This document shows, piece after piece, positions 19,390 to 63,300 of a stretch of DNA of 64,000 nucleotides. Both the position numbers and the translations under genes were made by a program. The stretch is taken from positions 16,058,001 through 16,122,000 of the forward strand of contig OZ024757.1 of the NCBI GenBank assembly GCA_964016885.1. The letters are read 5' to 3'. Numbering within the stretch: the first letter of the stretch is position 1; each line of letters starts with the position of its first letter. A model generated the notes under the pieces. The model saw only the letters and a list, made by a program, of their open reading frames with translations, searched no databases and was not told the DNA's origin. This DNA is from Eledone cirrhosa. Its lineage: Eukaryota.

Positions 19390-19392
<3 letters not shown>

Positions 19393-19593
19393 CGAAGGAA
19401 ATGTGGTAAGGAACCAGGTGGACCATAACGCACCAAAGTACTCAATACTTAGGGTAGTAGAGTGGGTAATAGGAACGAGTAGGACCGCGACGGCTGAGCT
19501 CAAGCCGTTTCGACGGCTAATTCTGGACGCTGAGTCCAGAATTAGCTGTCGAAACGGCTTGAGCTCAGCCGTCGGGGTCCTCCTCGTTCCTAT
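19390..19593 (-). mobile_element. Palindromic half-hammerhead element; other copies at 36946-37139, ~45700-45829 (partial), 51004-51207, 59679-59737 (partial), 60087-60293, 63044-63240 (diverged)
   Basis: An ~80-bp unique tail plus a ~120-bp palindrome (19469-19593) containing GAAACGGCT-TGAGCTC-AGCCGTC; flanked by (TA)n. Confidence 0.9.
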
Positions 19594-24450: not shown

Positions 24451-24810
24451 AGGCCGAATAGCTAAGAGGCTCGCTCTACAAATTTTAAGATGCGGGTTTA
24501 ATCCTCATTTCGTGGCCTCCTGGGTTAGTGGTAGCCTATCGTAGCCTCGGTTCGGCTCATGCCGTGTGAATGATAATGGCAAGACCGAAACTGTTTCGAA
24601 ACCCAGTTTCGTCGGCCCGTTGGATGGAGTGAGTGGGTAATTCTAAGGGGCGTGGGGCGTGTGCCCAACGATGAGTCACATTGAATCTCCCTGAACATTC
24701 AACTTTTCGTAATATGCTCAGCCACATGGAGCTTAATTCCATGAGAAGACTGCTCCATTGACGGGGAAAAATATCAGGAACATTTATCATCAATATCGAC
24801 GGAGGACCAT
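24451..24810 (+). mobile_element. Degenerate tRNA-derived SINE
   Basis: Head AGGCCGAATAGCTAAG...GGGTTTAATCC. The body TCACATTGAATCTCCCTGA...CTCAGCCAC is shared with 50300-50590 and 52680-53035. Confidence 0.55.
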
Positions 24811-26168
24811 TCAATTTGTTAAAAACGACATCAATCATCAATACAGACGGAGGACCATTCAATATGTTAAAAACGACATCAATCATCAATACAGACGGAG
24901 GACCATTCAATATGTTAAAAACGACATCAATCATCAATACCGACGGAGGACCATTCAATTTGTTAAAAACGACATCAATCATCAATACCGACGGAGGACC
25001 ATTCAATTTGTTAAAAACTACATCAATCATCAATACCGACGGAGGACCATTTAATTTGTTAAAAACGACATCAATCATCAATACCGACGGAGGACCATTC
25101 AATTTGTTAAAAACGACATCAATCATCAATACCGACGGAGGACCATTCAATTTGTTAAAAACGACATCAATCATCAATACCGACGGAGGACCATTCAATT
25201 TGTTAAAAACTACATCAGTCATCAATACCGACGGAGGACCATTCAATTTGTTAAAAACGACATCAATCATCAATACCGACGGAGGACCATTCAATGTTAA
25301 AAACGACATCAGTCATCAATACCGACGGAGGACCATTCAATTTGTTAAAAACGACATCAATCATCAATACCGACGGAGGACCATTCAATTTGTTAAAAAC
25401 GACATCAATCATCAATACCGACGGAGGACCATTTAATTTGTTAAAAAACTACATCAGTCATCAATACCGACGGAGGACCATTCAATTTGTTAAAAACGAC
25501 ATCAATCATCAATACCGACGGAGGACCATTCAATGTTAAAAACGACATCAGTCATCAATACCGACGGAGGACCATTCAATTTATTAAAAACGACATCAGT
25601 CATCAATACCGACGGAGGACCATTCAATTTGTTAAACACGACATCAATCATCAATACCGACGGAGGACCATTCAATTTGTTAAAAACGACATCAATCATC
25701 AATACCGACGGAGGACCATTCAATTTGTTAAAAACGACATCAATCATCAATACCGACGGAGGACCATTCAATTTGTTAAACACGACATCAGTCATCAATA
25801 CCGACGGAGGACCATTCAATTTGTGTTAAACGACATCAATCATCAATACCGACGGAGGACCATTCAATTTGTTAAACACGACATCAATCATCAATACCGA
25901 CGGAGGACCATTCAATTTGTGAAAAACGACATCAGTCATCAATACCGACGGAGGACCATTCAATTTGTGTTAAACGACATCAATCATCAATACCGACGGA
26001 GGACCATTCAATTTGTGTTAAACGACATCAATCATCAATACCGACGGAGGACCATTCAATTTGTGAAAAACGACATCAATACCGACGGAGGACCATTCAA
26101 TTTGTGTTAAACGACATCAATCATCAATATCGACGGAGGACCATTCAATTTGTGAAAAACGACATCAA
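24789..26168. repeat. 48-bp minisatellite (ATCAATACCGACGGAGGACCATTCAATTTGTTAAAAACGACATCAATC), ~29 copies
   Basis: Unit starts at 24789 and 24837; occasional 46/49-bp variants shift frame. Confidence 0.97.
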
Positions 26169-26589
26169 TTTCAACAACTTCCTCTGTACCTAATCTCACG
26201 GCTTATGATGTGTCGCTATGACCTGTCACAACAAGACATGACATGACCTGCCATATGTTTCTCTACATCACAGGTCATACATTTTTAGGAGGTAGGTACG
26301 ACCCTAACCACGACCACCACAATTGTCACCCTCATCACATCCACCACCACAACTAACACAAACCATTACAATTATTAGCAGACACTACCACCTTCACAAC
26401 CACTGAAACACGCCACCACACCATCGGTATCACTAACACACCCCCACCAACATCCCAAACATTAAGACGCACACAACAGCAACCACTACACCACACCGCA
26501 ACCACTACAACGCAACGCACCACCAAAAACAACACCCCACCGTCACCACCACCAAAACACGCCATCACAACGACTAACAAACGCTACCA

Positions 26590-43440: not shown

Positions 43441-43640
43441 AATATATATATATATAAATATATATATATATAAATATATATATATAGTAATGGCTTCTAC
43501 AGGACTAGAACTGTTTGATGCGAAGGAAATCATTAGGAAAGCCCATTCACACACACAGATATATATATATTTAATTAGAAAGTGAACAACACAATATATG
43601 ACTACTCCATTACCAATGGTTTCTGGATCCTATGAACGAT

Positions 43641-43696
43641 CTGATGAACGATCCAGACATATTAATATTGTCTGGGATCCAGAAACCTTTTGTAAT
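43641..43696 (+). ncRNA. Degenerate hammerhead inside inverted repeat 43568-43736 (family H)
   Basis: CUGAUGA-..GAUCCAGACA/UGUCUGGGAUC..-GAAACC uuu uGUA. The inverted arm preserves GAAACC auu GGUA; the 5' strand of stem I is missing. Confidence 0.5.
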
Positions 43697-43868
43697 GGGG
43701 TAATTATATTTTGTGTTGTTCACTTTCTAATTAAATAGTCCTGTTCTATACATTCAGTTCAGCACTCTTTTTTTCTTTGCTTTTTCTTCGGAATTACCTA
43801 ACACCCCCAAAAAAACACACACACACACATACACACAGATACACAGATACACACACACACTCACACAG

Positions 43869-43917
<49 letters not shown>

Positions 43918-43975
43918 TGTTCCTGTGATATAGGTCGGTAGAGTTTATAGTATTGATCTAATTCCTCTTTATAAC

Positions 43976-44020
43976 GCACTGATGAGTCCTGCAATTATGC
44001 AAGGACGAAACACTGTCAGC
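43976..44020 (+). ncRNA. Type I hammerhead ribozyme (family A relative)
   Basis: GCa-CUGAUGA-GUCCUGCA auua UGCaAGGAC-GAAAC acu GUC^AGC, with one stem I mismatch. It is followed by the TAAGCGCTCTTTGTT tail shared with family A. Confidence 0.75.
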
Positions 44021-44065
44021 AGATAAAGATTAATTGATGATGTAAGCGCTCTTTGTTTTTGTTCC

Positions 44066-45434: not shown

Positions 45435-45665
45435 ATTGTTATACTTTGGGTGGGTCATGTTGCCAATAAGAAACACACGCACCAGTTGCTTTCACTTCAA
45501 TTTATTATAATAAATTGAAGTGAAAGCAACTGGTGCATTTATAAATTTAGGAATTTATAAATTTCCGGTTGGTTGGTTGGTTCCACAACCAGATGGTTGT
45601 TTATATATTGTCAAAGTTCTTTCGTCACACATTCTGTGAACTTTTCAGTGACTGGGGTTCTTTTC
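45435..45665 (-). mobile_element. Solo Penelope pLTR fragment (family B) with mutated HHR (45610-45652) and internal palindrome (45479-45536)
   Basis: Reverse complement of ~7455-7660; core reads CUGAAAA (G8 lost). Confidence 0.85.
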
Positions 45666-45825
45666 TATGTATATATATACATATATGTGTGTGTATAGGA
45701 AAATGTTTGACCCCGACTCTAGAGCTCAAGCCGTTTCGAGGCTATTTCTGGTGGACTCTACTACCCTAAGTATTGAGTACTCTGGTGCGTTATGGTCCAT
45801 CTGGTTGCTTACCACACCTCCTTCG

Positions 45826-45859
<34 letters not shown>

Positions 45860-50974: not shown

Positions 50975-51005
<31 letters not shown>

Positions 51006-51580
51006 ACGAAGGAAATGTGGTAAGGAACCAGGTGGACCATAACGCACCAAAGTACTCAATACTTAGGGTAGTAGAGTGGGTAATAGGAACGAGTAGGGGC
51101 CGACGGCTGAGCTCAAGCCGTTTCGACGGCTAGTTCTGGACTCAGCCGTCCAGAATTAGCCGTCGAAACGGCTTGAGCTCAGCCGTCGGGGTCCTACTCG
51201 TTCCTATATATATAGATATATATATATATATACACACACACTTACTGTCTATCTATCCCTCTAACATTCAAATTACCACTCATCCTATCGCTATATTTGC
51301 TCCCATCTCATCTACAATCCATACAAACAGATTCATTACTATCCGACCCACTAACATGTGTTATTGAGATTAACTAAGAAAAAATATAATAATGTGATAT
51401 AACAGCTGAGAAAAAATACAATTATTTGATGTTCTTTAATTAAATTAGAAATGTTTCAATTGTAACTAGCTTCTACTGACTTCTATATTTTCCTGTTTTG
51501 CATTTTTAAATCGTATTTTCTTTCTTCTTCTACTTATTTGTCAATACTTGGAGATACATCTCCCTCCGGGCTGTTTTCTG

Positions 51581-55449: not shown

Positions 55450-55661
55450 CTCACCTACATCCAGAGTTGACATTGCACTCAGTGCTCCTGTGGAAGACCA
55501 TACATGGACACACTGGAAGAGGAAGACCAAGGTTAACGTATGTTGATGCCCTAAGGACAGACACTGGTCTGTTGGAGACGCAGGACATGGCAGCGATAAT
55601 GAGGGACAGAGACCTCTGGAGAGAACTCGTCCATGGATCTCGGGAATTTTACACGCCCTAG
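55450..55661 (+). mobile_element. RTE-clade LINE 3' end; shorter copies at 38078-38153 (-) and 60330-60454 (+)
   Basis: [58 protein letters not shown]. Confidence 0.85.
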
Positions 55662-59177: not shown

Positions 59178-60287
59178 GAATTTCTATTTATATATATATA
59201 TAGATATATATGTTTAAATTCCTCTATATATATATATATATATATATAGTTGGAATTCCTCTTATTAATATAATCTTCTATACAGAATCATACACACCCG
59301 TGTATATTTACCTATATATATATATATATATACACATCAATATTTATGTACACAGGCATACACACACACATAATAACATGAACGCGTGAGTGTGTATACG
59401 CGTGAGTGTGTATTTATAAATATATATATATATATAGAGAGAGAGACATATGTGTGTATGTATGTATATGCCTGTGTGCTGTGACAACGTGTAGATACAA
59501 GCTACACTGCAGCGTTCCTGGTGCAAGGGAAATAATTCCGTTTTTAAATCATGTTATGATAAAAAAGTGTAAATCTAAATGTACGATGATATCGTGTTGT
59601 TAGCAGTAGCTGCAGGCGACAAGGCTTTAACGTACATTTCATATAGATATTAATAACGAATATATATATATATATATATAGGAGTAAGTAAGACCCCGAC
59701 GGCTGAGCTCAAGCCATTTCGACGGCTAATTCTGTACTGAATGAAAAATCAGTTCTGGTATTTAAATAGCCGAACTTGTCAAGGGGCAATTCCATATATG
59801 GTCAAAGAGTTAATCACCAGGATTGGTCATCCCGCAAGGTAGTAGTAATTCTGCGATGGCAAGTTGGTGGGGGAGGTAGCCAAACCTGCCAGTAGGAGAA
59901 AAGGGGAGAGGGGGCGGAGTAGACCCATTCATGCGCTGGTGGTGCCAGCTACAGCTGGGTGTGAGGTCAAAGAGGACGCCGGAGAGGGGGAGGGGGAGGA
60001 GGTCAAAACGGTAAGTAGAACGATGAAAATGTAAAACTGTAAAAGGTACTGAGAGAGAAAAGAATATATATATATATATATATATATAACGAAGGAAATG
60101 TGTCAAGGAACCAGGTGGACCATAACGCACCAAAGTACTCAATACTTAGGGTAGTAGAGTAGGTAATAGGAACAAGTAAGACCCCGACGGCTGAGCTCAA
60201 GCCGTTTCGACGGCTAATTCTGTACTCAATTAGTACAGAATTAGCCGTCGAAACGGCTTGAGCTCAGCCGTCGGGGTCTTACTTGTT

Positions 60288-60328
<41 letters not shown>

Positions 60329-61339
60329 GCATATGTTGATGCCCTAAGGACAGACACTTGGTATGTTGGAGACGCAGTACATGGCAGCGATAATTAGGGA
60401 CAGAGACCGCTGGAGAGAACTCGTCCATGGATCTCGGGAATTTTATCCGCCCTAGATATATATATATATACTCTCGACTCTCAAATAATCGGAGAGGGGA
60501 TAGGCGGGGGGGGGGAGATGGTGTAATAAGTAGAAGGGTTTGGATTAAGTGGGGTTGGAGTGTAATAAGGAGGGGGTTTGGAATAAGCGGGGAGTTGGAA
60601 TAAGTGAGGGGATGTTGGAATAAGCGAGGCGGTGGGAATAAATGGAGATGGGTGGAATAAGCGGAGAGGGGTGGCATAAGCGGGAGGCGGTGGACAATAG
60701 GTAATTTTTCTAGATTGTCTCCGTTGATTCTTTTTTTAAAACCAGAATTAGTCGTTTAGTTTACATATTGAAACCCCCAGCCATCATATTTATTTTATAA
60801 CATATGGAATTTTTAAGTAATGTACTTTTTTGTCATGTATGTTTTGTAATGTCTTGTCCGCGAGGCGCAGCCCTGATACTTCCGTGCCCTGGGCCCAGGG
60901 GCCACACCCCTCCTCCTAGCCCCTCTCCTTCCCCTCTATAGCCCCTCTGGAGTAGCTTACTGTTGAAAATAACGTGAAAGTGGCTGAGCATTCCACAGAC
61001 ATGTGTGTTCCTTAAAATAGTTATCAGGGAGATTCAGCATGACACAGTGTGGCTCTTTGAATTATAGCTGACTGTGTAGTCGCATGGCCTAGTGGTAAGG
61101 GTGTTGGTCTTACAATCATAACGTCGTGGGTTCGATTCCTATTGTGGGTTGTGTTCTTAAACAAAACACCTCATTTCACATTGGTCCAGTATACTCAGTT
61201 GAAAATGTGTACCAGTTATAGCTGCGGGTCTAACCCTACGACGGACTGGTGTCCTGTCCAGGGGGGAAGTTTTGTACTCTCAGTCGCTTCACGCCACGAA
61301 ACCGGGATAATTATAGGTCTGATGAGCCTCCGGGCTCCC

Positions 61340-61837: not shown

Positions 61838-62990
61838 GGGCGGTGGATTGGCAGTATCGGTAGAGGGTCGGACGCCATGCTTTCCAGCATTGTTACGTCC
61901 CTTTACGATCCGAGTTCAAATCCCGCCGAGGTTGACTTTGCCTTTCATCCTTACGGGGTCGATAAAATAAAGTACCAGTAATGCACTGGGTAATTGCTGG
62001 CCTTGTGCCTAAAGTAGAAACAATTATTAATTAAAATGTGAGGTGGATTGGCAGTGTCGGTCGGTAGAGCGTCGGGCAACATGTTTTGTGGCATCTAGTT
62101 ACGTTACTTTGCGTTCTGGGGTCAAATCTTGCCGTGTTCAATAAAATAAAGTACCAGTAACGTAATGGGGTCGTAATAATCGATTTTATCCACCCCGCCA
62201 AAAAATTGTTGGCCCTGGCCTAAATCAGAAACTATTATTATTAGGCCCTTGCCATTCTGAGTTCAAATCCCGCCGAGGTTAACTTTGCCTTTCATCCTTA
62301 CGGGGTCGATAAAATAAAGTACCAGTAATACACTGGGTATTTGCTGACCTTGTGACTAACGTAGAAACAATTATTTTTATTGTTATTGGACGGTGGGTTG
62401 GCAGTATCGGTAGAGGGTCGGACGCCATGCTTTGACGCATAGAGTTACGGCCCTTGCCATTCTGAGTTCAAATCCCGCCGAGGCTAACTTTGCCTTTCAT
62501 CCTTACGGAGTCGATAAAATAAAGTACCAGTAATGCACTGGGGTAATTGCTGGCCTTGTGCCAAAAGTATAAATAATAATTATTATTATTATCAAGGGCG
62601 GTGGATTGGCAGTATCGGTAGAGGGTCGGACGCCATGCTTTCTAGCATGGTTACGTCCCTTTACGGTCTGAGTTCAAATCCCGTCGAGGTTAACTTTGCC
62701 TTTCATCCTTACGTGGTCAATAAAATAAAGTACCAGTAATACACTGGAGTCGATTTTATTGACTTTCTCCTCCCCGCAAAATTGATGGCCTCGTGCCTAA
62801 ATCAGAAACCAAGGACCGTGGACTGTCAGTATCGGTAGAGTGTCGAAAAATGTTTTGTGACATATAGTACGTCCCTTTACGTTCTCGGTTCAAATTGCAC
62901 CGAGGTTTAGCTTTGCCTTCCATCCTTAGAGAGGCGATAAAATAAAGTACCAGTAATGCACTGGGGTCGATTTAATTGACTTTCCCTACC
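61838..62990 (+). mobile_element. Head-to-tail cluster of six tRNA-derived SINEs
   Basis: Units start at ~61838, 62040, 62244 (5' truncated), 62388, 62596 and 62814. Each has some of TGGCAGTATCGG (A box), GAGTTCAAATCC (B box) and CTTTGCCTTTCATCCTTACGGGGTCGATAAAATAAAGTACCAG, with (TTA)n tails. Confidence 0.9.
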
Positions 62991-63300
62991 TTCAATCTTT
63001 GAAGTCATTGAAGCACTTGATGCATCGTGTTAATTCTTGGATCATTCAGGACCCCGATGGCGGAGCTCCGGCTGTTTCGACAGCTAGATCCGAATTCAGT
63101 TCGGATCTAGCTGTCGAACCGGCTGGAGCTCAGCCATCGGGGTCCTGAATCTTTTCATATTACCCACTCTACTACCCCAAGTATCGAGTACTTTGGTGGG
63201 TTATGGTCCACCTGGTATTTTACGACACCCTTTCTGATTATATATATATATATACACACGATATTAAACAAATGGAAACTATATTTATAAAACCATATCT

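Follow-up and report, generated by a model that had tools for sequence, protein, structure and literature searches.

A short head-to-head half-hammerhead repeat family in Eledone cirrhosa DNA and its probable origin from truncated PLE insertions

Copies and layout of the half-hammerhead repeat

The window, i.e., the whole stretch of 64,000 nucleotides analyzed here, is AT-rich animal DNA (31% GC) with many (TA)n runs. When the copy at 19391–19592 was compared by blastn with the 64-kb window, seven places matched, and these are the seven places listed in the earlier note. Their description as seven copies of one palindrome element applies to five of them; the copy at 59679 is unfolded rather than a broken palindrome, and the copy at 45700 consists of an inverted arm joined to a tail and lacks the forward arm. 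The copies other than 59679 are as follows.

19391..19591, minus strand: head-to-head copy 1, with inverted arm (19591–19534), 5-nt loop (19533–19529), forward half-hammerhead arm, 80-nt tail (19471–19392) and (TA)n on both sides
36948..37139, plus strand: loop-less head-to-head copy, with arms meeting on GTAC (37002–37005) and an 80-nt tail
45697..45826, plus strand: diverged copy, with inverted arm (45697–45751) joined directly to the tail (from 45755) and no forward half-hammerhead arm
51005..51205, minus strand: head-to-head copy, with 6-nt loop (51147–51142) in the orientation opposite to that of copy 19390
60088..60290, minus strand: head-to-head copy, with 5-nt loop (60231–60227), both arms carrying the subfamily variants of the adjacent parent-type copy, and an 80-nt tail
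63044..63238, plus strand: head-to-head copy of a diverged subfamily, with loop at about 63095–63099, short arm ending ~10 nt before the internal site, and an 81-nt tail
Spans of the five palindromes: 19469–19593, 36946–37061, 51083–51207, 60166–60292 and 63044–63150

The palindromes are 107–127 bp long and their arms are 88.9–97.6% complementary. Read in the hammerhead sense, an arm contains the 3' strand of stem II, GAAA, stem III with a self-complementary loop, GUC and GGGG. Each stub of ~200 bases carries this half hammerhead motif twice, head to head, in the order (TA)n, short inverted arm, loop of 0–6 nt, forward arm, tail of 80–81 nt and (TA)n, and the long hairpin has a predicted folding energy of −114 to −138 kcal/mol. 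The 5' core strand between stems I and II is replaced by the inverted arm in six of the seven copies. The short arm ends at GTTCC followed by TA, where it runs into (TA)n, in four of the five palindromes; the exception is 63044, in which the short arm ends ~10 nt earlier and against non-repeat unique DNA. The long arm extends 80 nt beyond this internal TA site, and the extension corresponds to a PLE 'tail'. A tail of 80–81 nt is present on five forward arms, and most of it on the copy at 45700, while it is absent from the five short arms and from the parent-type copy at 59679. TA or TA/TG repeats flank both ends in six of the seven copies and only one end in 63044.

The loops vary among the palindromes; the loop of 19390 is nearly the reverse complement of that of 51004, so that the two have opposite orientations, and on the tail side these two copies are identical over 85/85 nt. 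The arms of 36946 meet on GTAC without a loop, those of 60087 on AATT with one base lost, and those of 63044 on GAA/TTC. The junction evidence for this family consists of five junctions, which are of at least four different kinds. Both arms of 60087 and both arms of 63044 carry the variants of their own subfamily, indicating that the palindrome arose more than once or was remade at copying. The copy at 60290–60088 and the unfolded copy at 60062–59681 lie head to tail, with variants in common and a (TA)n run between them. The content of the palindrome arms, the differing loops with one near reverse-complementary pair, and the end of the short arm in four copies had all been described in the earlier note, and our measurements bear them out.

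A DNA-level element (a MITE, a Helitron-type element, or a hairpin-ended rolling-hairpin element with flip/flop ends), with only a chance likeness to a hammerhead, would accommodate the long palindrome, the TA target and the flip/flop loop; a hairpin-ended non-autonomous element had been one proposal of the earlier note. However, no inverted-repeat relationship exists between the two termini, and the terminal 15-mers of four copies were unrelated to each other's complement. Helitrons have 5' TC and 3' CTRR termini, and both were absent from the termini of four copies in either orientation. Moreover, the hairpin is internal on one side, and the window contains a full predicted hammerhead frame as well as sister families of the PLE type, as described below. 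We regard a DNA-level element as very improbable. Exact-pattern scans for the arm/tail family yielded no matches in viral contigs and none in metagenome contigs. An open frame running through arm and tail was considered as a gene and rejected; it had no protein relatives at E ≤ 0.01 (43 candidates) and is shifted or stopped in three of five copies.

The unfolded copy and its predicted hammerhead

The seventh copy differs from the others in retaining unique DNA upstream of the half motif.

59681..60062, minus strand: unfolded parent-type copy, with 325 nt of unique upstream DNA and a putative whole type I hammerhead frame, ending tail-less at the internal site, with (TA)n on both sides
59693..59787, minus strand: predicted type I hammerhead, with stem I (59787–59783 / 59697–59693), core UUGACAA (59782–59776), GAAA (59720–59717) and a cut predicted between 59698 and 59697

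On the minus strand, CCCC is followed by the core TTGACAA (59782–59776) and by the 5' strand of stem II (59772–59767, with a 6-bp partner), and CCCC is the partner of the GGGG that follows the cut site. Compared with CUGANGA, TTGACAA has substitutions at both bases of the 3–8 pair (U3, A8). The statement that no copy has CUGANGA is therefore literally true, yet misleading, because 59679 has the whole frame with this variant core. Likewise, of the parent that the earlier note had proposed to look for, with CCCC before the core and a PLE ORF upstream, the former is found at 59679, whereas no RT ORF occurs in the 325 nt upstream. A search for the full pattern gave a single match in the window; among 20,000 dinucleotide shuffles of the upstream DNA, none contained it and 158 contained stem I and core alone. 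The figure of 0 overstates the case, as the pattern was chosen after being seen. No Rfam hammerhead match was obtained at 59670–59830; Rfam at gathering score also missed the canonical motifs of the window, so that this blank says little. In free, unconstrained MFE folds of the parent, the core region is base-paired. Based on motif and pairing, and not on Rfam, copy 59679 is predicted to hold a whole type I hammerhead frame of the U3–A8 type.

The same change is described in the available excerpts of PMC4209133 (Cervera and de la Pena), which report U3–A8 covariation in the Cercyon PLE hammerheads of Schistosoma, with a long helix II, a short helix I and a palindromic loop 3, and paired motifs on opposite strands 100–700 bp apart. 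The predicted hammerhead shares with these the U3–A8 in place of C3–G8, the short helix I, the long helix II and the palindromic loop 3. It differs from them as described there in that stem III of 59679 is 6 bp and not minimal, and in that the long stem II bears an insert of about 40 nt. The stubs themselves are predicted to lack ribozyme activity. The earlier note had also raised a trans-cleavable hammerhead half, an idea that we rejected on predicted folding; it is unlikely because, in the predicted structure, the half is tied up with its own complement in a duplex of 50–60 bp.

We aligned reads to 59630–60072 at 80% likeness in four of the 23 listed runs, of which X1 and X5 are contigs from organism A and organism B, respectively, and X21 and X22 are RAD reads of two other samples of organism A from one study. 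Diverged copies cover the core and most of the 325 nt upstream in all four runs, and one X5 contig spans 59717–59973, demonstrating that the parent form exists in the second organism. The parent form is multi-copy in organisms A and B. At 59787, C>T was found in 191/210 and 144/153 reads of X21, in 199/206 and 129/134 reads of X22 and in 79 contigs of X1; this variant changes the G-U of stem I to A-U and gives five Watson–Crick pairs. At 59716, A>G (7162/8375 reads of X21) restores a C-G pair of stem III. The only core change among the variants listed was 59778 G>C (147/209 reads), which affects the free position N7. Variants at positions 3 and 8 are absent from those listed, which suggests that U3–A8 is the majority form among the copies. 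The A>G variants in these reads represent DNA differences among copies.

The summed depth of the arm, which is not a copy number, exceeded that of the core 17-fold in X1 and 5-fold in X5. A loose end at 59742 is shared by 21 X1 contigs (agreement 0.64), which from there run on into the inverted arm, just as 36946 does. In X21 and X22, large peaks of molecule ends (59731, 59788 and 59791) were considered as element ends and rejected; they sit on AATT sites and are read as RAD restriction cuts, which bias RAD depth. The alignments yielded no joints, and reads appear to be cut at 59630–59692.

These depths bear on whether the stub is a self-copying non-autonomous family, in which a few palindromic masters would give rise to read-through transcripts that the PLE protein copies again, flipping the loop. 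The opposite orientation of one loop in 19390 and 51004, with their identical tail sides, would be expected from such flipping, the excess of arm over core points the same way, and the shared loose end fits the loop-less junction of 36946. On the other hand, a stalling hot spot would yield the same depth excess, the five palindromes do not share one junction, and their arms follow the parent subfamilies. Self-copying, which is compatible with the explanation that we favor below, seems unlikely but possible.

Related structures and a PLE relic in the window

Besides this family, the window contains short inverted structures of other families and the relic of a PLE.

1279–1442, 29339–29572, 33393–33571, 39326–39855 and 43568–43737: other short inverted structures
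5616..7659, plus strand: broken PLE relic of another family, with the RT part inverted (6432–5616), the thumb and GIY-YIG forward (6407–7264, one in-frame stop), a complete hammerhead motif at 7470 and a tail-less end in (TA)n

All five of the other short structures combine an arm that stops in (TA)n at an internal TA site with an arm that continues into a tail of ~45–85 nt. Together with four of the five palindromes of the half-hammerhead family, this fixed-end layout is found in nine of the ten short inverted structures of the window; the relic, an eleventh inverted structure, has another layout and was left out of this count, since its inverted arm starts inside the ORF and its forward arm is tail-less. 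Arms without a tailed partner (59681, 7659 and 45436) end at the internal site as well, suggesting that this site behaves as a true start site. One of the two readings in the earlier note attributed the end of the short arm to resolution on TA microhomology; since this base is also where unfolded copies end, it is better read as a second start site of reverse transcription than as chance microhomology.

The fixed ends also bear on whether the palindromes are fold-back artefacts of assembly or library preparation. Inverted duplications are a known type of chimera, and X1 may be the source of the window itself. However, the arms differ within a copy by 2–11%, the fixed ends recur across loci and families, and unfolded copies stop at that site too; we consider an artefact extremely improbable.

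Complete CUGANGA...GAAA motifs were found in three of the five other structures (29488, 39766 and 43641). No whole hammerhead was found in the 33393 structure, which is grouped by layout alone; the surrounding segment at 33350–33571 comprises a palindrome and a short tail in (TA)n and contains a CUGACGA motif, for which no GAAA partner was found. The structure at 1279–1442 is of the same family as the relic, and its tail-less arm matches that family 111 nt deep, well beyond the clean part of the tailed arm.

In the relic, the inverted upstream part and the forward downstream part overlap by 132 nt, and their junction holds a 7-bp hairpin. The Pfam matches (E-values of 0.017 and 0.0033) score below the cut-offs; tblastn with homologues gave E-values of 1e-93 to 1e-29. 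The best protein match (62% identity) is an RT-domain protein of Octopus vulgaris, in keeping with an octopus as the likely host. The cysteine linker that precedes the nuclease in homologues suggests that the relic may belong to the Neptune clade. A further PLE 3' end lies at 45436–45665, and a 23-nt fold-back insert occurs within 45439–45665 (at 45514–45536); this snap-back copy sits at a natural AT-rich palindrome.

Two further hammerhead-bearing families were observed. One of them, at 29270–29572, 31120–31313, 37515–37780 and 43568–43800, has a 10-bp stem II and a short palindromic stem III, and its folded copies carry the whole motif in both arms. The other has canonical hammerheads (3395, 39415, 39766 and 43979) and lies at 3310–3600, 4712–4830, 39326–39940 and 43960–44060; its members at 3310 and 4740 possibly represent opposite ends of a single 1.5-kb inverted insertion with a tailed arm of only 32 nt.

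The link of the half-hammerhead family to PLEs, as proposed in the earlier note, rests on the whole hammerhead frame predicted at 59679, on its multi-copy occurrence in reads, and on sister families with complete hammerheads and a relic with RT and GIY-YIG. On this basis, the family very probably belongs to the PLEs.

Proposed formation of the stubs, and other repeats of the window

The explanation that we favor, and hold to be moderately probable, is that the stubs are extremely 5'-truncated, head-to-head PLE insertions into (TA)n made by two-ended priming. Both target strands would be nicked and each would prime its own cDNA, one starting at the tail end and the other at the internal TA site, which lies 80 nt further upstream. 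The two cDNAs would pass through the 3' half of the hammerhead and presumably stall in the long stem II. Joining of their 3' ends would make use of short self-complementary stretches (GTAC, AATT or GAA/TTC), and the loop, in either orientation, would come from the cDNA that reaches further.

The occurrence of loops in both orientations and of a tail-less arm that sometimes reaches deeper upstream favors two cDNAs over one that folds back. This is supported by the opposite loops of 19390 and 51004, by the loop-less copy 36946, by copy 45700, which has an inverted arm without its forward template, and by the relic with its overlapping inverted upstream and forward downstream parts. Against two-ended priming, the flipped loops could come from recombination between the arms after insertion and the structure of 45700 from a deletion; furthermore, the tail of 80 nt exceeds the usual 30–40 nt, copy 63044 breaks the fixed-end rule, and snap-back does occur in the window (the 23-nt insert at 45514–45536 and the 7-bp hairpin at the relic junction). 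That two-ended priming is the main route has, in our judgment, slightly better than an even chance.

A single tail-primed cDNA could instead snap back in stem II, copy itself and, at the internal TA site, be linked to the other end of the target. The part of the earlier note's snap-back proposal that places the join in stem II is upheld, and junctions at natural hairpins or short palindromes, here and in 29339–29572 and 1279–1442, are in line with it, as are the clear 23-nt insert and the sense of the loop in 63044 and, if the upstream sequence derived from reads is right, in 51004. However, snap-back alone does not give loops in both orientations; it predicts loops in the sense of the tailed arm only, and one of 19390 and 51004 must be opposite. 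In addition, 45700 and the deeper tail-less arm at 1279–1442 need a second event, and the copying must stop at the very base where unfolded copies begin. Snap-back as the general route is rather doubtful.

The stubs resemble several known systems in part. According to the available portions of PMC3846280, head-to-head inverted repeats in Adineta have a palindrome at the junction and are read as self-priming on an antisense template; those of PMC8557442 present an inverted 5'-truncated copy, an optional tail and (TA)n targeting as standard PLE features and name the origin of tandem and inverted PLE structures as an open question. Compared with the EN+ PLE structures in these portions, i.e., inverted pLTR plus 'tail', the stubs likewise have a head-to-head inverted 5'-truncated copy with a junction palindrome, an optional tail at one end, a type I hammerhead near the 3' end, a (TA)n target and no visible TSD. 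They differ in that the insertion is only about 200 bp, with neither an ORF nor a direct repeat between the arms, in that the truncation lies inside the hammerhead, in the tail of 80 nt (30–40 nt in the published structures), and in the presence of loops in both orientations. In vitro, the Anolis PLE protein Poseidon PAc, a predicted dimer, nicks and extends both strands and uses two RNA start sites that bound the tail (PMC11167929). Two internal RT starts bounding the tail and an AT-rich target are shared with the stubs; here, unlike with Poseidon PAc, the two starts seem to be used at the two ends of one insertion, and the main text of PMC11167929 contains no inverted-repeat model. Animal non-LTR retrozymes, as characterized in the accessible part of bioRxiv 10.64898/2026.07.22.740005, are also short and non-coding, bear a type I hammerhead and are thought to be PLE-derived; they form head-to-tail tandems with a whole hammerhead per unit, whereas the stubs are dispersed, head to head, and carry a half motif.

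The stubs also resemble products of twin priming in that both target ends would prime and an inverted part adjoins a forward part, but they have a fixed second start, arms that overlap almost fully into a palindrome, no poly(A) and no TSD. In LINE-1 twin priming, both target ends prime cDNA, and an inverted and a forward part are joined on microhomology. We found no printed account of PLE twin priming, of an octopus hammerhead or of a non-autonomous Penelope hairpin or MITE in the available text of a mostly open-access literature, outside Repbase and Dfam. The accessible part of PMC13282606 assigns 6.83% of the O. vulgaris genome to PLEs, with 190 families, and the repeat library of that work may already list the half-hammerhead family. 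Strings specific to the family were absent from the supplement of PMC8557442, in which long runs are cut and lines wrapped, and from that of PMC13282606, which excludes the repeat library; this is weak evidence.

The half-hammerhead stubs are best filed as a real repeat family that represents a known PLE structure at its smallest. The novelty is modest and comprises the truncation inside a U3–A8 hammerhead, the 80-nt tail, and junction evidence on the formation of PLE inverted repeats. Being the shortest PLE inverted products, the stubs have both start sites and the junction within one sequencing read, and a genome-wide count of loop orientations would therefore test two-ended priming against self-priming directly. 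For annotators, such palindromes resemble MITEs or microRNA hairpins, and searches for CUGANGA miss the U3–A8 parent. Octopuses are known for heavy RNA editing, and the stubs, if common in introns, might be a source of long dsRNA. Tentatively, and with less than an even chance, PLE inverted repeats in general could be made by two-ended priming, in which a dimeric RT–endonuclease would use two fixed RNA start sites at both nicked strands and the cDNAs would be joined; in the octopus, this would have led to a very abundant family of 200-bp stubs, possibly self-propagating with loops flipping in each round, that would seed introns with perfect dsRNA hairpins.

Other repeats were observed in the window. 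The segment at 33864–35169 holds an inverted repeat of 318 bp, whose two copies are 97.8% alike and separated by about 670 bp; part of it is an abundant SINE-like repeat that is also clustered at 61838–62994. Tandem arrays occupy 11335–13020 (55-bp unit, about 30 copies, about 99% alike) and 24557–26193 (unit of about 39 bp, with several open frames). The best 150 of 430 weak Rfam matches are microRNA models on microsatellites and hairpins; the only match in the window at Rfam gathering score is tRNA-like (61078–61150) and is probably the head of a SINE. Short repeats at 55548–55661, 60341–60455 and 38078–38149, beside TA runs, resemble the 3' end of a LINE reverse transcriptase.
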